A DNA stretch of 54,732 nucleotides, taken from Asterias amurensis. Its lineage: Eukaryota. The DNA lies in NCBI RefSeq assembly GCF_032118995.1, contig NC_092652.1:15816336-15871067 (forward strand), written 5' to 3'. The position numbers and the translations under genes were made by a program. Shown piece after piece: positions 2,791 through 54,129 of this stretch (its first letter is position 1; each line of letters opens with the position of its first letter). The notes under the pieces were generated by a model. That model saw only the letters and a program-made list of their open reading frames with translations. It did not search any database and was not told where the DNA came from.

Positions 2791-3102
2791 GCCTTGCCTG
2801 GGTTTTTTGTTTACCAGTGTACAAAACCTTGATCGTTCCCACCAATGGTCCCACCAGCGCTTTGTACAAAACAGCCGCGTGTCAAGGGAACAGTGAATAA
2901 TTGTTTTTTGTTCGAACAACTGTTCGTCTGCTTATTAAATGCATACTCCGTCATTTGAAGATGACAGCAGAACTTCGAGCAATGTTGCCAAGGTATAACA
3001 AAACAATTGTTTCACGCTGTGACTGGGGTCCATGGGTTTTGTACACCCTCGAGGGAAAATGGTACCTTTGGAGAAAAATTGTATGTTAACAAAATGATTA
3101 TT

Positions 3103-3472
3103 AAAGGAACACGTTGCCTTGGATCGGTCAGGTTGGTCTTTGAAAAGCGTCTGTAACCGTTTGTTTATAAAATGTATACGGGTTGAAAGATATTTTAAAA
3201 GTAGAATATAATGATCCACACTAGTATCACTCGAAATTGCGTGATTTTCCTTTCACCTCGTCAACTAACACCGTCCGCCATTTATGGGAGTCAAATTTTT
3301 GACTCCCATAAATGGCCGACCATGTTAGTTTGCAAAGTAAAAGGAAAACCACGCAATTTCGAGGCAAATTTGTGTGGATCATTGTATTCTACAGTATACA
3401 TTTTATAACAAACGGTTATAAACGCTTTTCAAAAACTAACTCGACCGATCCAAGGCAACGTGTTCCTTTAAC
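3103..3472. mobile_element. MITE family A (TIR aggaacacgttgccttggatcg), full copy flanked by TTAA
   Basis: Terminal inverted repeats at both ends. Internal palindrome ccatttatgggagtcaaatttttgactcccataaatgg. TTAA on both flanks. Confidence 0.8.
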
Positions 3473-4009: not shown

Positions 4010-4360
4010 GTGGGTGTGGTGGCCGAGCGGTCTAGGTCACCAGACCCAAGCTCTGGTGCTGTCGGCAGCAGAGTGTGGGTTCCAATCCCGGTCATAACAC
4101 TTGTGCCTTGAACATGTGTTGAACAAGGCACTTATAACCATAGTTGCTTTGTAAAACATTTGGAGTGTAGTGCATTCTGCTCTACCAGCCAGACTCTTAG
4201 TGTATGATACTCATGCCTATCCTTATAGACTGTGAAAGGGATAGCTTTGTTTCAGCCCCAAGAGTAGGTGGCAACGTGCCCCTTGTGACAGCTAAGTGTA
4301 GCCCTCACCTAGAAATGGTCTTCTATGGCCTTGTGATGTTAGGCAGTCTCCAAAAAAAGT
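4010..4360 (+). mobile_element. tRNA-derived SINE (family 5: same head, different body)
   Basis: Head ggtggccgagcggtctaggtcacc...cagagtgtgggttccaatcccggtcataacacttgtgcc. Body shared with 18316-18484 and 38485-38575. Confidence 0.65.
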
Positions 4361-5403: not shown

Positions 5404-6080
5404 GTAAGTACGAAGACTAACTTTTCCAAATTTGAGAGGAAAAAAAATAAATAAAAAAATAATCATCTTCTGCCCTTGAATAAACAGTACATCATAGTTG
5501 TTGTTTTGTTTGTATTTGTTTGCAATCTTTTTATTATCAACTTACATCATACAAATAACAAACTTTTAAAGACAAAAGTAGTGAAACGGCCAAACTTGCC
5601 ATTGTAGCAATGAATTTATGATTTGAATATTCATATACCATGGTTTATGCTTTTTTATTATTTTCCTAAACATATAAAAACATTTCCCAGGAAGTTTGGC
5701 GACAGGGATTAGGCTTTGCAACTTATGAGTGTATTGAAATACTGGGAGGCGTTCAAGCGCACAAGATTTTTTCCTTCAAGTAAATTACGTGCAACTAAAG
5801 TGGTCCCAAGCGTGAGACTTGCACAGTCTATAAAAAGTTAAAATACATTTGCTTCCACATTGAATGTTACACTTTTGTTAGTGGTAACAAATAGTCCAGC
5901 ATTATCTTAAATCATTTAAACAAGTTTTATTTCAAATATAGGCTCACATTCCTATGATTATAATGTTTTTGAAGTTGTTTTCTTAATTTCATCCTAAATA
6001 AAAAATCAACAGACTGGATTTTAATGATTTCAGATAGGTGATTAGAATTTGATAATTTCAAAAGAATTAATTACATTTGA

Positions 6081-6473
6081 TTAAAGGCACTGGACACCTT
6101 TGGTAATTGTCAAAGACCAGTCTTCTCACTTGGTGTATCTCAACATATGCATAAAAACCCAACCTGTGAAAATTTGAACTCAGTTGGTCGTCGAAGGTGC
6201 GAGATAATAATGGAAGAAAAAACACCCTTGTCACACAAATTGTGTGCTTTCAGATGCTTGATTTCGAGACCTCAAAATCTAATTCTGAGGTCTCAAAATT
6301 AAAATCTTGAAAAATTACTTCTTTCTCGAAAACTATGTTACTTCAAAGGGAGCCATTTCTCACAATGTTTTATACTATCAACAACTCTCCATTGCTAGTT
6401 ACCAAGTAAGTTTTTATGCCAACAATTATTTTGAGTAATAACCGATAGTGTCACTGCCTTTAAAAGTTGTTAA
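6081..6473 (+). mobile_element. MITE family B (TIR aggcactggacacctttggtaattg), full copy with TTAA TSD
   Basis: gaTTAAaggcactggacacc ... tagtgtcactgccTTTAAaag. Internal hairpin gagacctcaaaatctaattctgaggtctc. Confidence 0.8.
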
Positions 6474-15756: not shown

Positions 15757-16130
15757 TCGTTGCCTTGGATCGGACGAGTTGGTGTATAAAAAGCGTTTGA
15801 AACCGTTTGTTATAAAATGCATATGGTTAGAAAGATATTTAAAAAGTAGAATATAAGGATCCACACAAGTATCACTCGAAATTGCATGGTTTTCATTTTA
15901 CGTCGTGAACTAACGCGGTTGGCCATTTTATGGAGTCAAAATTTTGACTCCACAAAATGGCCGACTGTGTTTCTTCTCGATGTAAAAGGAAAACCGTGCA
16001 ATTTCCAGGCATGTTTGTGTGGATCATTGTATAATCTACTTTTAAATTATCTATCTGACCATTTGCATAACATAACAAACAGTTTCAAACGCTTTTCAAA
16101 GAACAACTCGACCGATCCAGATTTCCTTTA
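15757..16130. mobile_element. MITE family A copy with degenerate ends
   Basis: Full-length similarity to 3103-3472. Source of spurious ORFs 15886..16131 and 15893..16078. Confidence 0.7.
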
Positions 16131-18814: not shown

Positions 18815-19020
18815 AAATTCTGACTGGCACCCCCGAACAAAGATATTAACAAAATAGGGACACCGCCAACATAGGGCTAGATAGCTCAGTTGGTGGAGCG
18901 CTGGCTTGTTAATCCAGAGGTCGTTGGTTCGAATCCCACTCTAGTCAACTCTTTGTTCAACCCCCAAACTCATTTAAAAATTTACCCAGTCAGTTTCCCT
19001 TGTGGTTTATATTGATAACT
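18815..19020 (+). mobile_element. SINE family 3 copy; tRNA-like unit at 18876-18950 (anticodon-loop region cttgttaatcc, Lys-like)
   Basis: gggctagatagctcagttggtggagcgctggcttgttaatccagaggtcgttggttcgaatcccactctagtcaa. The 3-prime acceptor strand mismatches the 5-prime strand, so it is not a functional tRNA. Confidence 0.65.
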
Positions 19021-25632: not shown

Positions 25633-26033
25633 TTAAAGGAACACGTTGCCTTGGACCAGTCCAGTTGGTCAAACATAGCGTTTGAAACTGTTTCTTTTGA
25701 AATGCATATGGTTAGAAAGAAATTTTAAAAGTACAACATAATGATCCAAACAAACATGCCTCGAAATTGCACGGTTTTCCTTTTATGTCGCGAACTAACA
25801 CGGTTGGCAGTTTATGGAGTCCAAATTTTGACTCCACATATAATGGCAGACAGTGTTTCTTTGCGATGTAAAAGGCAAACCGTGAAATTTCGAGGCATGT
25901 TTGTGTGGATCATTATATTCTACTTTTAAAATATCTTTAAAATGTCTTTCTTTATAAATGCATTTCATAACAAACGATTTCAAGCGCTTTTCAAAGACCA
26001 ACTCGACCGATCAAGGATAACGTGTTCCTTTAA
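25633..26033. mobile_element. MITE family A copy with TTAA target-site duplication
   Basis: cctTTAAaggaacacgttgcc ... cgtgttccTTTAActt. Confidence 0.8.
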
Positions 26034-26636: not shown

Positions 26637-27010
26637 TTAAAGACCTTGGACACCTTTGGTAATTGTCAAAGACCCGTCTTCTCACTTGTTGTATCTCAAC
26701 ATGTGCATAAAACAACAAGCCTGTGAAAATTTTAACTCAATTGGTCGTCGAAAGTTGCGAGAGAATAAAGGAAGAAAAAGCACCCTTGTCACACAAGTTG
26801 TGTGCTCTCAGATGCCTGAGGTCTCGAATTCAATTCAAATATTTTAGTGAGAAATTACATTACTTCTTCCTCAAAAACTACCTTAATTCAGAGGGAGCCA
26901 TTTCTCACAATGTTTTATACTACCAACAGCTCTCCATTTGTTCCATACCAAGTAAGTTTTTATGCTAACAATCATTTTGAGTAATTTCCGATAGTGTCCA
27001 GTGCCTTTAA
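26637..27010 (+). mobile_element. MITE family B full copy with TTAA TSD
   Basis: cagTTAAagaccttggacacctttggtaattg ... ccgatagtgtccagtgccTTTAAgag. Confidence 0.8.
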
Positions 27011-27283
27011 GAGTCACACAGATATAAACTGGTGATTAAAATTCACACTTGGGGTGGTTCTGAAAAGAACCGTTGGTTTCAACTCGACGTTTCGATCAGT
27101 ATGCGCTGATCGTCTTCTGGAGAATACTTTCATTGAGAGATACATGGTAGTCGTTACATGTTACCGCAAACCTTTCCATATTGTATTTCTACCATGCAAA
27201 GTTTTAAATCCTACTTAAAATTCACAGATTCACGTAATGCAAGTTGACTACATGTAAATTTTGCACCTTGTTTTTCGCCTCAG

Positions 27284-29660: not shown

Positions 29661-29927
29661 CCGGTGAATGGAGAGACAACAACTGTGGCGACTGGGCAAA
29701 GTTCATCTGCCAGAAAACCGTCGACGACGTTCCTATGGTAACACATGCACCAACCACACCTCCGACTGGCGAGTGTCCAAACGGCTGGAAAAAGTACAAC
29801 AATCGTTGCTACACCATTGGTGGAAAGAACGAAGGATCCAAGAAGAATTGGCAAGATGCCAGGAAGGAGTGTCAAACCTTGAATGCAGCGGCTAGCCTGG
29901 CATCCATACACGATATCGCTGTGCAGA
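29661..29927 (+). CDS. exon; CTLD-G C-terminus (GEWRDNNCGDWAKFICQK), PT-rich linker, and CTLD-H start (ECPNGWKKYNNRCYTIGG...LASIHDIAVQ)
   Basis: Acceptor attcatacccag, donor caga|gtaagt at 29928. ORF 29645..30100 continues past the donor because the downstream junction copies stay in frame. Confidence 0.85.
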
Positions 29928-30240
29928 GTAAGTATTCCTTTCGAATAACAGTTTCCCTTGTCGCAAGCCTGGTGTCCATACACGATACCTCTTTGCAGAG
30001 TAAGTATTCATTTCGAAAACAGTTTCCGTTGTATACTTTCGCCAGCCTGGATATCGCCGTGCAGAGTAAGTATAGACCAATCCAGGCGCGCATTGCCTAG
30101 CACTTGCGCGCCTGGATTGGTCTATTCCTTTCTAAAATAGTTTCCCTTGTATACTATCGCAAGCCTGGCGTCCATACACGATACCACTGTGCAGAGGATA
30201 GTACATTTAGTCATTTCCAGAACACTTTCCCTTGTTTATA
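29928..30240 (+). repeat. tandem array (3 extra units, 66-75 bp) copied from the exon-end plus splice-donor junction of exon 29661-29927
   Basis: Units repeat ..agcctgg(c/t)(g/a)tccatacacgata.c..tgcagag|taagtat..cagtttcc.ttgt.. Units 1 and 2 keep cagaGTAAGT and are 72 and 66 nt, so they stay in frame. Unit 3 has the GT mutated (gatagt). Confidence 0.85.
30075..30124. repeat. 50-bp perfect palindrome inserted into unit 2 of the junction repeat
   Basis: agaccaatccaggcgcgc attgcctagcactt gcgcgcctggattggtct. Confidence 0.8.
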
Positions 30241-31795: not shown

Positions 31796-31907
31796 AAGGG
31801 AAATCGAACAGACTGTGTCTTGATGATGAATGAGGAAGAGGAACCAGGCCGCTGGAATGATGTGGACTGTATGGCCCTCAACAGCTACCTTTGTGTCATG
31901 AAACCTG
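31796..31907 (+). CDS. exon; CTLD-H C-terminus (KGNRTDCVLMMNEEEEPGRWNDVDCMALNSYLCVMKP)
   Basis: Acceptor gcataattcag, donor cctg|gtaata at 31908. This junction is the founder of the downstream minisatellite. Confidence 0.8.
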
Positions 31908-32530
31908 GTAATACTAACGTACAGTCTCATCATTAGTACTTTAACTTTGTGTCAAGAAACCTGGTAATACTAACATGCAGTCTCACCCTTGGTACTTTAA
32001 CTTTGTGTCAAGAAACCTGGTAATACTAACATGCAGTCTCAACCGTACCTTTGTGTCATGAAACCTGGTAATACCAACATGCAGTCTCATCATTAGTACT
32101 TTACATATGTGTCATGATACCTGGTAATACTGCAGTCCCATCCTTAATACTTTACCTTTGTGTCGTGAAACCTGGTAATACTAACATGCAGTCCCATCCA
32201 TAGTACTTAACCTTTGTATCATGAAACCTAATAATACTAACATGCAGCTCATCATTAGTACTTTACCTTGTGTCATGATACCTAATAATACTAACATGCA
32301 GCTCATCATTAGTACTTTACCTTGTGTCACGATACCTAGTAATACACTGTACTAACATGCAGTCTCACCCTTGGTACTTTACCTTTGTGTCATGAAACCT
32401 GGTAACTAACATGCAGTCTCATTCTAAGTACTTTAACTTTGTCTCATGATACCTGGTGATCACATGTACTAACATGCAGTCTCATCCCTGTAGTACCTTA
32501 CTGTTGTTTCATGAAACCTGGTAATACTAA
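31908..32530 (+). repeat. minisatellite, about 12 units of 49-60 bp, derived from the exon-end plus donor junction of exon 31796-31907
   Basis: Each unit: ..tttgtgtcatgaaacctg GTAATAC TAACatgCAG tctcatcattagtacttta... The last unit (32507-32530) precedes the true acceptor at 32583. Confidence 0.9.
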
Positions 32531-32583: not shown

Positions 32584-32828
32584 ATGATAAATACACAAAT
32601 CCAACCACCCCGCCGAAGTGTGACGGCTTGCCTGAGTACGAGAAGTACGGAGATGCCTGCTTCAAGGTTGACATCATTACTAAGAGGACATTTGAGGAAG
32701 CCAAGACGTTCTGCCAGAAGGATGGAGCAAACGTGGCCTCGATCCGCAACGGTTACGAGCAGGCCAAGTTGCAATCCATGGTCATGAAAGCGGATCAAAG
32801 TGTCTGGATTGGCTTGTATGACGACCCG
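32584..32828 (+). CDS. exon; linker plus CTLD-I N-terminal part (DDKYTNPTTPPKCDGLPEYEKYGDACFKVDIITKRTFEEAKTFCQKDGANVASIRNGYEQAKLQSMVMKADQSVWIGLYDDP)
   Basis: Acceptor ggtatcatttcag, donor gtaatt at 32829. ORF 32511..32942. Confidence 0.85.
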
Positions 32829-35866: not shown

Positions 35867-36087
35867 GTAAGATGCAAGAATTGCATTGTTTCACTCTGTT
35901 TGTGAAGCCAAGAATTCTCACAAAATTTATTAGCTCAATTTCTAAACTAGCCAAGTACCTCGTGAAGAGATAAAAAAGTAGAAGATTTCAGGAAAAGCCC
36001 AGATAATTTACTAAAGGGAAGATCTCTGCAATCGGATTGGGACTGATGAAAGCTCAATCAACATAGTGCTCCCAGAAGGATTTGAAC

Positions 36088-36263
36088 CAGCCGTTGATTT
36101 CACAAAACTCTTCCTAACTTAAGACTAATCTTAGGACTTAGGACGAGTCCCAGCCTTGCACTGTAGCATGCAGACCTTAAGATTAATCCTAAGTTAGGAT
36201 GAGTTACTCGCCTATCCTAACTCGAGATAAGACAAGTCCTAACTCTTTGTGAAATTGACCCCT
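36088..36263. mobile_element. MITE family D copy (inside an intronic tandem duplication)
   Basis: cagccgttgatttcacaaaac ... ctttgtgaaattgacccctg. Confidence 0.7.
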
Positions 36264-36450
36264 GATTGTGAAGCCAAGAATTCTCAGAAAATTGAACTCA
36301 ATTGCTAAACTAGCCAAGTACCTCATGAAGAGAAGAAAAAGTAGGAGATTTCAGGAAAAGCCCAGATAATTTACTAAAGGGAAGATCTCTGCAATCGGAT
36401 TTGGACTGATGAAAGCTCAATCAACATAGTGCTCCCAGAAGGATTTGAAC

Positions 36451-36596
36451 CAGCCGTCGATTTCACAAAAATTCTTCCTGACTTTAGATTAATCTTAGGA
36501 CTTAGGACGAGTCCCAACCCTGCACTGTAGCATGCAGACCTTAAGATAAATCCTAAGTTAGACGAGTCCTAAGCTCTTTGTGAAATCGACGGCAGG
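36451..36596. mobile_element. MITE family D copy with an internal deletion (second unit of the tandem duplication)
   Basis: cagccgtcgatttcacaaaa ... ctttgtgaaatcgacggcagg. Confidence 0.7.
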
Positions 36597-36680: not shown

Positions 36681-36848
36681 GTGGCTGGAAGTGGATTGAT
36701 GGCTCCCCAGTGGCTTTTACCAACTGGGCTAATGGCGAGCCTGACGATGACTCGGCAGGGTGTGCAGAAATCTGGCCAGATTCGCAGGGCAAATGGTTTG
36801 ACGTATCCTGTACTGTCAATAGCCACTATGTCTGTGAGATGCCAAAAT
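36681..36848 (+). CDS. exon; CTLD-J C-terminal part with EPD...WFD (GGWKWIDGSPVAFTNWANGEPDDDSAGCAEIWPDSQGKWFDVSCTVNSHYVCEMPK)
   Basis: Acceptor gacgtttgcag, donor gtaagt at 36849. ORF 36662..36886. Confidence 0.85.
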
Positions 36849-38876: not shown

Positions 38877-39125
38877 TCGCATCCCCTTAAGGTGATCACC
38901 TAGCTGCCGCCTCCCAGGTTGTATCGTAATTTGGGTGTGATCCCTGGCTACACGGCAGTTAACGGTTGTATGGCTTCTGACTGGCACCCCCGAACAAAGA
39001 TATTGACAACATAGGGACACCGCCAATATAGGGCTAGATAGCTCAGTTGGTAGAGCGCCGACACGTTAATCCGGATGTCGTTGGTTCGAATCCCACTCTA
39101 GTCAATTCTTTGTTCAACCCCCCCC
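38877..39125 (+). mobile_element. SINE family 3 copy; tRNA-like unit at 39034-39110
   Basis: Conserved upstream module plus gggctagatagctcagttggtagagcgccgacacgttaatccggatgtcgttggttcgaatcccactctagtcaa. Confidence 0.65.
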
Positions 39126-41019: not shown

Positions 41020-41575
41020 TTCAGGGCCAAATTTTATAGTGCTGCTTACTGGACACAATTAGTAATTGTCAAAGACCAGTCTTCTCACTTCGTGTATCTC
41101 AAAATATGCACAGAATAACAGACCTGAAAATTTGAGTACAGTTGGTCGTCGAAGTTGCGAGATAATAATGAAAGAAAAACACCCTTGTCACACGGGGAGT
41201 TGCTTTGATTTTGAGACCTCAAAATCTAATTCTGAGGTCTCGAAATCAAATTCATGGAAAGTTACTTCTTTCTTGAAAACTATGAGGGAGCCGTTTCTCA
41301 CAATGTTTTATACTATGAACAGCTCTCCATTGCTTGTTACAAAGTAAGTTTTTATGCTAACAATTATTTTGATTAATTACCAATACAGTCTTCTGCCTTT
41401 TATGGCAGATTTTGTGCTTACTGTACAATTTCCATTTCATAGCTAACCGTAAGCATATGAAAAGGCGTGCTAACTGTCCTGCGCTTACTGCACGAAAATG
41501 CATGACGACACATGTAAATCCCTAACCTGTAATATGCGCTTCTGCTTAAGCAAATTATTCTGTTGCAGCTAGCAT
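41020..41575. mobile_element. MITE family C copy split by a nested MITE-B insertion
   Basis: gggccaaattttatagtgctgcttac at 41020-41046, rest at 41398-41575. Similar to 30627-30886. Confidence 0.65.
41047..41397 (+). mobile_element. MITE family B copy nested inside a MITE family C copy
   Basis: Interrupts the MITE-C element spanning 41020-41575. Accounts for ORF 41066..41347. Confidence 0.7.
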
Positions 41576-44473: not shown

Positions 44474-44757
44474 ACATGGTGTATACTCGGTACTTTCCCG
44501 AGTTCTGTGAAAAAATTTCACATGCATATTACTCTAGCGGGATTGGATTCCACGACTCTTGCAATTCTAGAGCAGTGTCTTACCAACTAGACTACTTTGC
44601 CTAGTTACTAGAGGCAGTTGGAATCCTATATTTTGGCTGCGGGTACCGGGCAATCTCAGTAGTCTAGTTGGTAAGACACTGCTCTAGAATTGCAAGATTT
44701 GTGGGTTCGAATCCCACCCGAGAAAGTACTGAGAGTATACAGTGCTATGGGTAAAAA
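44474..44757. mobile_element. inverted dimer of SINE family 4 forming a ~120-bp-arm hairpin
   Basis: Arm 44474-44600 is the reverse complement of arm 44660-44757 (..gcaattctagagcagtgtcttaccaactagact..). A-rich tail at 44750-44771. Confidence 0.65.
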
Positions 44758-44820
44758 AAAAAAAAAAAAATGTTTTTATCCCCAATGAAAATTTAACTTT
44801 TTTTATTACTTTGCTTGCAG

Positions 44821-45071
44821 ATCCAGCACTGCCCACTCAAGAACCCTCTTTTGGCGGCCTGTGCCCAGCCAACGGATTCCTCCAATATGGCACTGATTGC
44901 TTCAAACTAATGACTACTCCGATGTCATTCATTGATGCTAAGAAGGCCTGCGAAGGACAGACAGCTACCCTGGCCTCTGTCCGGGATGGCTTCTCGGAAG
45001 CGTTCATCGTGGCCAACATGCTGTACAAGAATAATTTAGACAGCGCTTGGATTGGCTTGACAATAAATGAT
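44821..45071 (+). CDS. exon; linker plus CTLD-M N-terminal part (DPALPTQEPSFGGLCPANGFLQYGTDCFKLMTTPMSFIDAKKACEGQTATLASVRDGFSEAFIVANMLYKNNLDSAWIGLTIND)
   Basis: Acceptor ttactttgcttgcag, donor gtatgt at 45072. ORF 44742..45194 reads through into a MITE. Confidence 0.85.
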
Positions 45072-45136
45072 GTATGTTGTTTATATTTCTCACATTTATT
45101 TCTGCTTTTGTTTTGCTTAACGGGAAGTTACACGTT

Positions 45137-45490
45137 TGGGATTGTCAAAGACCAGTCTTCTCACTTGGTGTATCTCAACATAAGCATACAATAACAAGCC
45201 TGTGAAAATTTGGGCTCAATTGGTCATCGAAGTTGCAAGAAAATGAAGAAAGAAAAAACACCCTTGTTGGACGAAATTGTGTGCTTTTAGATAGGAATAA
45301 AAGACTTCTAGCTAGAAGTCTGTTATTATTTTAGTGAGAAATTGCCTCTTTCTAAAAACTACGTTACTTCAGAGGGAGTCGTTTCCCATAATGTTTTATA
45401 CTATCAACAGCTCTCCAATGCTTGTTACAAGTAAGTTTTTTAAGTTAATATTTGTTTTGAGTAATTACCAAACGTGTACCTTCCCTTTAA
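45137..45490 (+). mobile_element. MITE family B copy, 5-prime TIR truncated
   Basis: Starts 66 bp after the donor at 45072. ORF 44742..45194 reads into it. Confidence 0.7.
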
Positions 45491-45644
45491 TTTGTTTTTA
45501 TATTGTTCTTTTGTATTTGGTGCTGTTGCCCTAATTTACTATAGTCTTCACCAGGATACAGCACCATGCGCTTAGAAACATAATCGTAAGCGTGGCATAA
45601 ATTTATATTATTACTATTGTTGTTATGAAGTAGGATGCTCTTGA

Positions 45645-45815
45645 AAGCATGGTCCAAATTTCCTGCGAATGCGATACGAATTTTGACATCAAAAAATTTG
45701 CAAACAAATAATTCTCATCAGTTGACATGTGCTGAACTCCTGTGAAACCTTTCGCTGCGAAAACAGCCCAGTGACGCCAAAATTTGCATTGCAAGAAGTA
45801 TGAACGGCGCTTAAT
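45645..45815. mobile_element. MITE family F copy, degenerate
   Basis: tcctgcgaatgcgatacgaattttgacatc ... ttgcattgcaagaagtatgaacggcgctt. Confidence 0.55.
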
Positions 45816-46275
45816 ACTATAATAGAACAAGACCGTGTGCCCCCTCCCGCCACACTCCAAAAACCAGCAGGTCTGATACTTTGAATCAAATTTGATCTTC
45901 TGAATTTGTCGAAATCCATCTCCCTAAAACTGCAATGGGACACTATACCTGTATTGTACATGTACTGAGGGTTTCTTTTGGGGGGAGGGGTTAGTTGTTT
46001 GGGGGAGGGTGTGGTAGTTCTTTTATTCTATCTATTTTTAATGAGTTATTTCAACAGTAGTTTAGCTGTTTGGGCACTCCACCCTGAACAAATCGTTTTG
46101 GGGTTTGTTTGTTTGTTTGTTTTGGTTTTTTTTTTGTATTTCTTTTTTCTTCTTTACTGTTATATGTTTGTTTCTCCATTATCAAATGATACAAAAAAAA
46201 CAATTTTATGTGAGTTCTTTTTTCCAAATTTTATGTGAATTCTTATTTCTTTTTGCACACTACCGTTACATACAA

Positions 46276-46675
46276 CATTGTACATGTACAAGTGTGCCGT
46301 TATAAGTTATACAAGTTATTTTGTTTGTCTTTTATACTATAGGCCTATTATGTGTGTTTCTCCATACCAAATGATATGAAAAGCAAGCTAAACATGAGAA
46401 TTTTGTTTTGCAGAATAACGGTACATTCAAGTGGATTGATTGTTGGCCATTGATGTTTACTAGTTGGGCTGATTACGAACATTGTACAAGTGTACTGTTA
46501 TAAGTTATACAAGTTATTTTGTTTGTCTTTTATACTATAGGCCTATTATGTGTGTTTCTCCATACCAAATGATATGAAAAGCAAGCTAAACATGAGAATT
46601 TTGTTTTGCAGAATACCGGTACATTTAAGTGGATTGATCGTTGGCCATTGATGTTTACAAGCTGGGCTGATTTCG
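46276..46675 (+). repeat. ~205-bp tandem duplication spanning the intron 3-prime end, the acceptor and the first 67 nt of exon 46612
   Basis: 46276-46480 and 46481-46675 are near-identical. The junction is at ttacgaac|attgtacaag. Confidence 0.85.
46414..46480 (+). pseudogene. duplicated decoy acceptor plus truncated pseudo-exon (NNGTFKWIDCWPLMFTSWADYEH...), copy of the start of exon 46612-46783
   Basis: 205-bp tandem duplication of 46276-46480 and 46481-46675. First copy has no donor and runs into a stop (..VLL*). Confidence 0.6.
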
Positions 46676-46783
46676 AACCAAGTGAAGAAGACGGAGAGGG
46701 TTGCGTAGTACAGACCAACAGTGCTGACTGGGATTCTATCAAATGTACATTGAAACGTGCATTTGTCTGTCATACAACAGAAA
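46612..46783 (+). CDS. exon; CTLD-M C-terminal part with EPS...WDS (NTGTFKWIDRWPLMFTSWADFEPSEEDGEGCVVQTNSADWDSIKCTLKRAFVCHTTE)
   Basis: Acceptor ttttgttttgcag (second copy of a duplicated acceptor), donor gtaagt at 46784. ORF 46606..46851. Confidence 0.8.
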
Positions 46784-50378: not shown

Positions 50379-50722
50379 TTAAAGGAACACGTTGCCATGG
50401 ATCGGACGAGTTGGTCTATAAAAAGCGTTTGTAAACGTTTTTTATAAAATGCATATGGTTGGAAAGATGTTTTAAAAGTAGAATCAATGATCCACACAAG
50501 TTTGCCTCAAAAGTGCGTGGTTTTCCTTTTACTGCGCGAACTAACACGGTCGGTGTTAGTCGACGAGGTAAAAGGAAAACCGTGCAATTTCGAGGCATGT
50601 TTGTGTGGGTTATTGTATTAAACTATTACAACATCTTCCTTCCCATATGCATTTTATAAAAAATAGTTACAAACGCTTTTCAAAGACCAACTCGACCGAT
50701 CCAAGGCAACATGTTCCTTTAA
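50379..50722. mobile_element. MITE family A copy with TTAA flanks
   Basis: TIRs aggaacacgttgccatggatcg and ggatcggtcgagttggtc..atgttcct. Confidence 0.75.
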
Positions 50723-51005: not shown

Positions 51006-51352
51006 TTAAAGGGACCATTGCCTTGGATTGTTGGTTTATGAAAAGCATTTGTAAACCGTTTGTTTTAAAAGTAGAATATAGTCCACACAAATATGCCTAA
51101 AAATTGCGTGGTTTTCCTTTTACTTTGAGAACTAATATGGCGAGTCAGACATTTTGTGAAGTCAAATAGACTACACAAATTAAAGTGCTGTGTAATTGTT
51201 CACAACGTATAAGAAAAACAGGAAATTTCGAGGCATGTTTGTGTGGATCATTATATTCTACTATTAAAACATCTTTCTAATCATATACATTTCATAACAG
51301 TTACGCACCCTTTTCATGAACCAACTCGCCTGATCCAAGGCAACTTGTCCCT
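51006..51352. mobile_element. MITE family A copy with degenerate 3-prime TIR
   Basis: gcTTAAagggaccattgccttggattg plus internal similarity. Confidence 0.65.
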
Positions 51353-53242: not shown

Positions 53243-53749
53243 GTATGTGTGCATGGCAAGTTAATATCAAGCTCAATCAGTTAAGCGCACTGGACACTTT
53301 TGGTAAACCTTGCGTGTGACGCTAAACATACCTTCATCTGCCAGACGGCAGACATTGGGAAACCAATGTTGGCAGGTCTGCGAGGTGGGGTGGTTAAGTG
53401 TCCAAAACGTCACCACGAAATATTTCAGATTTGTTTTTCAACACCTGGTTGCTTCTCTGAGGAATACGTAATCTGAGAAACGTTTACTGACAGTAACGCT
53501 TCTCAGGTTCAACCTGTTTGCCATAAAACAAAACTGTGTTTCTGGTTCACATGCAAGTATCACTGTTTACAGGTTTACTCAGGCTTGTGAGCTACAGTGA
53601 TTCACTTATGCGGCATCCTTCATTGCCAGAAATATATAATAGTAGAATCAGACCAATACTTACCTCCAGATCCCCTGGGTTATTTTCATGTGAATTCTTT
53701 CCTTCTTGTTGCCCCTAACCAAAGGTTGCCTTGTTTGGGACACACTTGC

Positions 53750-54129
53750 TGAAAGGCGCTGGACACCTTTGGTAATTTTCAAAGACCGGTCTTCTCACTT
53801 GGTGTATCTTAACATAAGCATACAATAACAAATCTGTGGATATTTCAGCTCAATTGGCTGTCAAAGTTGTGAGATAAGACAAAACACCCTTGTCACAAAA
53901 AGTTGTGTGCTTTCAGATGCTTAATTTCGACACCTCACAATCTAGTTCTGAGATCCCGAAATCAAGTTCGAGGAAAATTACTTCTTTCTCAAAAAACTAC
54001 ATTTCTTCAGAGGGAGCCGTTTCTCACAATGTATTATACTACATGTATCAACAGCTCTCCATTCCTCTATACCAAGGTTTTGCTATTAATTATTTTGAGC
54101 AATTACCAATAGTGTCCAATGCCTTTTAA
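53750..54129 (+). mobile_element. MITE family B full copy. An orphan TIR fragment of the same family lies at 53283-53310
   Basis: aaaggcgctggacacctttggtaatt ... caattaccaatagtgtccaatgccTTTTAAc. Accounts for ORFs 53890..54129 and 53903..54112. Confidence 0.75.

Follow-up and report, generated by a model that had tools for sequence, protein, structure and literature searches.

The 54.7-kb window, i.e. the whole stretch of DNA that was analysed, lies inside a single large animal gene on the + strand. A profile search seeded with both exons of the domain CTLD-M finds about 15 (at least 15) C-type lectin domains in this window, each encoded by two or three exons. In front of the second exon of CTLD-M, the 13th of these domains, the end of the intron, the acceptor and the start of the exon are present twice in a row. 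How did this additional acceptor arise, and does the spliceosome use it? The reading favoured here is that positions 46277-46678 represent a genuine germline 198-bp tandem duplication spanning a 3' splice site, which originated by slippage or template switching, of which mostly the downstream acceptor is used, and whose two copies have been evened out by gene conversion. The probability of this combined reading is put at about 0.72.

The CTLD-M domain and the duplicated unit

CTLD-M is encoded by two exons, separated by an intron that contains the additional material:

44821-45071, + strand: CTLD-M exon 1, with the acceptor ttgcttgcag/AT in phase 1 and the donor GAT/gtatgt in phase 0; profile match with E=3e-37 and splice model
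45072-46611, + strand: CTLD-M intron of 1540 nt, now containing the relic A0 and the young copy A
46612-46783, + strand: CTLD-M exon 2 of 172 nt, encoding Cys2, Cys3 and Cys4, with the acceptor ttttgttttgcag/AAT and the donor AAA/gtaagt in phase 1

After splicing of 44821-45071 to 46612-46783, the resulting 141 residues match Pfam Lectin_C (PF00059) over profile positions 2-107 of 107 with 62.5 bits (E=7e-17; cut-off 22.6 bits) and contain all six cysteines of the long form, at positions 15, 26, 43, 114, 129 and 137. The solved structures that match the domain best are those of FcRY, PLA2R, LY75 and MRC1, which belong to the mannose receptor family. Members of this family have ricin-type and fibronectin type II domains at the N-terminus, 8-10 lectin domains and a single membrane span. 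The long-form six-cysteine C-type lectin domain is the feature that CTLD-M has in common with MRC1, PLA2R1, LY75, MRC2 and chicken FcRY, while the number of lectin domains differs, with at least 15 in the window, where the lectin region alone was examined, versus 8-10 in the vertebrate family. The best domain identity to mannose-receptor-like proteins is about 41%. In an exhaustive HMMER search of 1.8 billion representatives, the nearest proteins are annotated as 'MRC1-like' or 'LY75-like' and come from invertebrate deuterostomes. They contain 12-16 lectin domains, and the nearest multi-lectin proteins, from Branchiostoma (amphioxus), Acanthaster, Strongylocentrotus, Amphiura, Asterias and Ptychodera, show domain identities of at most 41%. 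Word-indexed searches with the CTLD-M domain and three neighbouring domains retrieved no close orthologue or annotated protein. The affinities of the nearest proteins make an invertebrate deuterostome the probable source of the gene.

The duplication consists of two adjacent units:

46277-46480, + strand: copy A, 204 nt, comprising 137 nt of the intron 3' end and 67 nt of the exon start
46481-46678, + strand: copy B, 198 nt, which holds the exon start together with the working acceptor

By Tandem Repeats Finder, 46285-46678 is the top-scoring tandem array of the window (period 198, 2.0 copies, 95% matches, 0% indels, score 732). Repeat pairing within the window gives 96% identity between 46285-46480 and 46483-46678, and in a self-BLAST of the window the two copies of 46285-46678 match each other with E=3.5e-87. 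They are arranged head-to-tail and differ by eight substitutions per 196 aligned bases, with no internal indels. The 6-nt difference in length is due to an additional TGTACA at the 5' edge of copy A. In both units, ~130 nt from the end of the 1540-nt intron lead into the acceptor ttttgttttgcag, which is followed by the first 67 nt of CTLD-M exon 2. The remainder of the exon is continuous with copy B only, where 46679-46783 completes Lectin_C, whereas copy A is followed by intron sequence with a TAA. Adjacent copies of high identity, each combining an intron end with an exon start, are what defines an internal tandem duplication over a 3' splice site. The initial annotation had described such a tandem duplication across the intron/exon boundary, and all three methods confirm it. 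It had given the segment as ~205 bp, which fits copy A but not the period, which is 198. Its splice coordinates, a phase 0 donor at 45071 and an acceptor at 46612, are right by sequence, frame and splice model.

Two other sources of the unit were considered and rejected. Derivation of the pseudo-exon in copy A from a paralogous lectin exon is contradicted by the best paralogue (36689-36741), which reaches 73% identity over 45-53 nt, versus 96% for the adjacent copy. Membership in a dispersed-repeat family is contradicted by self-BLAST, in which no further copy of the young 198-nt unit was found across the window, the decayed A0 aside, despite the repeat-rich introns.

Breakpoints, an older relic and the divergence of the copies

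The edges of the units and the sequence directly upstream of copy A carry the following features:

46136-46276, + strand: A0, a decayed third copy, located upstream of copy A inside the same 1540-nt intron
46202-46249, + strand: 25-nt tandem duplication inside A0 that spans the relic pyrimidine tract (Tandem Repeats Finder period 25, 1.9 copies, 91%; also found by repeat pairing as family D3)
46278-46291, no strand: 14-nt palindrome TTGTACATGTACAA without a mismatch, marking the 5' edge of copy A (self reverse-complement BLAST, 100%)
46482-46489, no strand: shorter, 8-nt form TTGTACAA of the palindrome, on the corresponding edge of copy B
46274-46276, 46478-46480 and 46676-46678, + strand: AAC microhomology before the unit, at the end of copy A and at the end of copy B, respectively

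A0 is recognised by two colinear segments. The first, 46136-46198, aligns with 46515-46580 at a score of 47, while 1074 control windows from the same sequence reach at most 27 and 500 shuffles at most 35. For the second, 46245-46271 (ATTTCTTTTTGCACACTACCGTTACAT), the partner is the acceptor region 46598-46624 (ATTTTGTTTTGCAGAATACCGGTACAT), and the score of 29 is equalled by 0 of 1000 shuffles. BLAST likewise relates A0 to the unit (E=2.4e-4). The spacing between the two matches is widened because of the internal 25-nt duplication at 46202-46249, and the acceptor AG of A0 has become AC (46257-58). A0 also reveals the direction of one change in the younger copies: the A at 46418 is derived in the pseudo-exon, because A0 and copy B read ACC at this place and copy A reads AAC.

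The join between A0 and copy A reads ...ACAAC/ATTGTACA and the join between copies A and B reads ...CGAAC/ATTGTACA. Since both run into ATTGTACA, the A0 event and the A/B event share one 5' breakpoint. Tandem duplications that are bounded by a palindrome and flanked by microhomology are a product of replication slippage or template switching, and the A/B duplication most likely originated by one of these processes between the AAC microhomologies. Acceptor-side duplication has occurred at least twice at one palindrome, and the palindrome-bounded site would have duplicated once already, giving A0, before the A/B event. The initial annotation is incomplete in this respect, as A0, the palindromic breakpoint and the evidence for conversion are absent from it.

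This evidence comes from the distribution of the eight mismatches. Two of them are located in the intron part (46296 and 46298) and six in the exon part (46418, 46428, 46441, 46461, 46464 and 46475), where three are synonymous and three nonsynonymous. The excess in the exon part (6/67 versus 2/129 differences) has a Fisher p=0.02. Between 46299-46417 and 46497-46615, 119 nt are free of mismatches, while the flanking 77 nt hold all eight (~10%); under random placement, a mismatch-free run of such length has P=0.004. Neither the exon excess nor the clustering is predicted by simple neutral decay of one copy, and the assumption of gene conversion was therefore added. The clustering fits gene conversion because conversion evens out the centres of repeats and spares their edges. 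This pattern suggests that copies A and B exchanged sequence by gene conversion in the central 119 nt, and if this is true, the A/B event is older than the overall divergence of 4% implies. A structured or small RNA was rejected as an explanation of the 119-nt core, since Rfam gave no match at E<=1 and folding was no better than that of shuffles on either strand (z = +1.5 and 0.0).

False haplotype duplications are a known type of assembly error, and two haplotypes of a heterozygous animal, ~4% apart, could have been placed end to end in a genome that truly has a single copy. The copies indeed differ by substitutions alone, at a level that is plausible for alleles of a marine invertebrate. Such an artefact is nevertheless quite unlikely: the entire window contains no N and no gap, hence no scaffold join is nearby, and the edges show microhomology and a palindrome, as in biological breakpoints. 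In addition, the older and more diverged A0 lies immediately upstream, the gene contains other local duplications of differing age, and differences between alleles should not cluster in the exon part. Searches for the locus in independent DNA, by exact 26-mer and by protein-guided scan of metagenome contigs, found no match, and exact look-ups of four ORF products of the window gave no match either.

Two identical acceptors and the sequence behind them

A germline duplication of this kind leaves a second acceptor within the intron, with the following elements:

46412-46413, + strand: spare acceptor AG, the counterpart of the working AG at 46610-46611
46414-46480, + strand: truncated pseudo-exon of 22 codons and 1 nt, with six differences from the real exon; profile match E=6e-9
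46501-46503, + strand: in-frame TAA, encountered when the upstream acceptor is used and located 283 nt before the donor of the exon, i.e. the next junction

The sequences of the spare and the working acceptor are identical from -115 to +4, in line with the initial description of an upstream acceptor that is intact and the same as the real one. The reading frame from 46414 is exactly NNGTFKWIDCWPLMFTSWADYEHCTSVLL followed by the stop at 46501-03, so that the pseudo-exon does read into a stop as had been proposed. A product that terminates here would cover Lectin_C profile positions 2-71 of 107 only and would lack the last three cysteines. Use of the upstream acceptor would thus truncate the protein, barring a very weak in-frame GT at 46492.

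That no donor follows the pseudo-exon, as had also been claimed, was assessed against 24 confident donor sites of this gene (consensus A-A-G/GTAAGT), obtained by pairing frame-compatible GT and AG between successive coding segments. Sites were scored with a generic metazoan matrix and with a matrix trained on the 24 self-modelled sites only. With the generic matrix, the real donors score 4.2-10.6 (median 6.9) and the best of the 17 GT sites in 46414-46611 scores 3.8; with the gene-trained matrix, the corresponding values are 4.8-11.1 and 3.5. None of the 17 GT sites in 46414-46611 reaches the weakest of the 24 real donors. The best cryptic site by the generic matrix is TAT/GTGTGT with the exon end at 46549, which is past the stop. 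The sole candidate that is in frame and free of stops is the GT at 46492 (AGT/GTACTG, exon end 46491), scoring -1.6 with the generic and -0.2 with the gene-trained matrix. All remaining GT sites in this interval shift the frame or lie beyond the TAA.

The lack of a credible donor bears on the idea that a new exon and a new intron are emerging. In potato RdRp, an intron was gained by tandem duplication across the boundary of intron 1 and exon 2 (Ma, Lan & Niu 2016, PMC4974935). There as here, the unit consists of an intron 3' end and the 5' part of an exon, and the branch site, pyrimidine tract and acceptor come from the parent; but in potato a donor within the upstream exon fragment is used, and the new exon and intron are found in transcripts. 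By analogy, a cryptic donor near the end of the pseudo-exon would turn the intron part of copy B into a new short intron and add at most 26 residues in frame. The shared architecture speaks for this possibility, as does the GT at 46492, which would yield a 78-nt in-frame insert without a stop. It is nonetheless highly improbable, as the scores of AGT/GTACTG are well below those of all real donors, no other GT preserves an open frame, and the insert would repeat part of the core of the lectin fold ahead of the Cys2-Cys4 region. Duplication of a whole exon, as in mutually exclusive exons, does not apply: the duplicated part covers the first 67 of 172 exon bases and excludes the donor. Recursive splicing via the upstream site was rejected as well, because the 45071/46414 junction (GAT/AAT) regenerates no donor.

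In a further alternative, regulated unproductive splicing, the upstream acceptor is used to a meaningful extent, either alone or together with the GT at 46550 (exon end 46549). The result would be a stop-bearing poison exon, or else a long exon, and the gene would yield less product in certain tissues or conditions. Known poison exons possess both splice sites and are usually conserved. The fragment resembles them in that use of its acceptor would bring in a stop codon in frame, long before the last exon junction, but it differs in being a fragment with an acceptor only, where a cassette has an acceptor and a donor, and in having an older sibling, A0, that has decayed. Regulation of this kind is favoured by the upstream acceptor, which reproduces a working one exactly and is still intact although the edges of the unit are ~10% diverged (8 in 77 nt). 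Moreover, TAT/GTGTGT (3.8) is barely below the weakest real donor and would leave a downstream intron of 62 nt, and the same gene has two more arrays of spare donors. On the other side, the identity of the core reaches back 115 nt from the AG, which is far beyond the needs of a splice signal and is better explained by conversion than by selection. The loss of the AG in A0 means that no long-term constraint is visible, and a donor of real quality is lacking after the pseudo-exon. Regulated use of the upstream acceptor is therefore considered unlikely.

In the favoured reading of a duplication with mostly downstream acceptor use, the choice between the two sites would depend on their surroundings. 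As the sequences are identical from -115 to +4, intrinsic strength cannot decide between them, and their identity at the site had already been pointed out initially. With a score of 6.0, where most reach 7-12, the shared acceptor is weaker than all others that were confidently paired, so that it probably relies on exon context. The exons in the splice model of this gene measure about 104-306 nt and the introns 0.4-3 kb, sizes at which exon definition is known to operate. The donor of CTLD-M exon 2, AAA/GTAAGT (46784), scores 7.9 and is located 172 nt from the downstream acceptor. Paired with the upstream acceptor, it would define an exon of 370 nt (46414-46783), which exceeds every other modelled exon of the gene; this exon, with the TAA at 46501 inside it, would be the realistic outcome of upstream use. 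The exon sequence beyond the duplication also contains a possible additional determinant:

46684-46699, + strand: purine-rich run GAAGAAGACGGAGAGG, which starts 6 nt past the 3' breakpoint and is a candidate exonic splicing enhancer

Purine-rich sequences are classic exonic splicing enhancers, and by analogy GAAGAAGACGGAGAGG may act as an enhancer for the downstream site. Copy A did not inherit this run because it lies beyond the 3' breakpoint. The downstream acceptor at 46612 is expected to be predominantly used, since it offers an exon of normal size, a strong donor and the retained GAAGAAGACGGAGAGG, and arguments from exon definition favour it. The upstream site is transcribed first, however, and kinetic arguments of the 'first transcribed, first used' type would favour the upstream acceptor instead.

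Copy A, which is now intronic, would offer the spliceosome a second set of branch site, pyrimidine tract and AG that is the same as the real one. Behind this spare AG lie 67 nt of exon and a stop codon, and no donor. Transcripts using the upstream AG would acquire a premature stop and would be subject to nonsense-mediated decay, or would encode a truncated and misfolded domain. It is plausible that the upstream site acts as a 'decoy' in this sense, and that some leakage to it occurs and is cleared by nonsense-mediated decay. The net effect would likely be a small cost in expression and no new function.

Duplications at splice junctions in this gene and in other systems

Three duplications in the gene are associated with junctions, as had been noted initially, and the one in CTLD-M is among them; the other two, then cited at 29928-30240 and 31908-32530, are found at 29894-30230 and 31889-32530, respectively. 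In the array at 29894-30230, the end of a lectin-domain exon and its donor are repeated about four times, in units of 72 and 66 nt. AGA/GTAAGT is present at the exon ends 29927, 29999 and 30065, and the frame is open through all three, so that the downstream donors would add 24 or 46 in-frame residues. The fourth copy reads AGAGGATAG and has lost its GT. The third copy of this array is broken by an inverted-repeat insert (30072-30125). The array at 31889-32530 is a 56-nt minisatellite with 11.5 copies of ~79% identity. Its unit takes in ~19 nt from the end of an exon (…CVMKP), then the donor CTG/GTAATA and the branch-site- and acceptor-like sequence TACTAAC…ATGCAG, and CTGGTAA is retained in eight copies. 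It occupies most of the intron ahead of the exon that starts near 32584.

Local tandem duplications with a unit of at least 40 nt occur at five places in the window (16515, 29894, 31889, 35896 and 46285), and a junction lies inside the unit in three of the five. When the duplications are placed at random relative to the 60 modelled junctions, three or more such cases have P=0.016, a value that is post hoc and depends on an approximate gene model. Small tandem duplications might be drawn to junctions, e.g. by breakage or template switching tied to co-transcriptional splicing, or they might be retained as spare sites that tune a fast-evolving receptor of the immune type, but this explanation is very unlikely. 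The pair at 35896-36197 and 36262-36561 is a direct duplication of ~300 nt with 92.7% identity, which is wholly intronic and ends ~120 nt before the acceptor at 36681.

Repeats of other kinds are also present. Interspersed repeats crowd the introns (3101-3471, 15758-16119, 25633-26033, 50379-50722 and 51061-51352), and a further repeat family is found at 6073-6464, 26637-27014, 41048-41400, 45112-45490 and 53742-54129. The copy of this other interspersed family at 45112-45490 is located in the same intron as the duplication at 46277-46678. One repeat family of the window is self-complementary over ~370 nt (foldback or MITE-like). In addition, tRNA-like sequences are present in introns on the + strand at 18818-18965, 38975-39122 and 44653-44770, and also at 4013-4100. 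They include two Asn-like copies (GTT), which are 92.6% identical over 148 nt with flanks, and one Ser-like copy (AGA) that is followed by an A18 tail. Each of them lies ~50-110 nt or less upstream of the first exon of a lectin domain. Judged by their sequence, they look like tRNA-derived SINEs and not like tRNA genes.

Internal gene duplications that cross intron-exon boundaries were reportedly described by Gao and Lynch in 2009 (PNAS 106:20818; cited in PMC3443670 and PMC4974935), and those that duplicate a single splice site are said to be common in eukaryotes. Like these, the CTLD-M duplication has a short unit with one splice site, which the gene then possesses twice, and the intron can take up the surplus sequence; nothing essential differs. 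Particular to this locus are the recurrence at one spot and the presence of two donor-side arrays in the same gene. In the literature, internal duplications of a single splice site are considered as a way in which introns can become longer and in which new introns or alternative sites can emerge (PMC3443670, PMC4974935, PMC2891723); products that are poorly spliced can then still be caught by nonsense-mediated decay, as Lehmann et al. note (2010, PMC2891723). In the Rogers AGGT model and in the vertebrate ATP2A1 case (Hellsten et al. 2011), an exonic tandem duplication gives rise to a new intron (reviews: PMC3443670, PMC2891723). The likeness is that the duplication supplies duplicate splice signals and that nonsense-mediated decay can buffer the outcome, and the difference is that their unit is purely exonic and creates a new intron, whereas an existing intron is lengthened by 198-204 nt in CTLD-M.

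Both the class of event and the mechanism have thus been described before, and the locus is one more example. In practice, it is a trap for annotation, as a gene predictor or aligner that chooses 46414 over 46612 will produce a truncated or frameshifted model of the multi-lectin gene. It also constitutes a natural competition between acceptors, in which 119 nt are identical and the difference lies only downstream, and A0 shows the eventual fate of such a copy, namely loss of the AG. Together with the two donor-side arrays, the locus could serve as an illustration of intron lengthening by internal duplication and of the way in which alternative splice sites are seeded.
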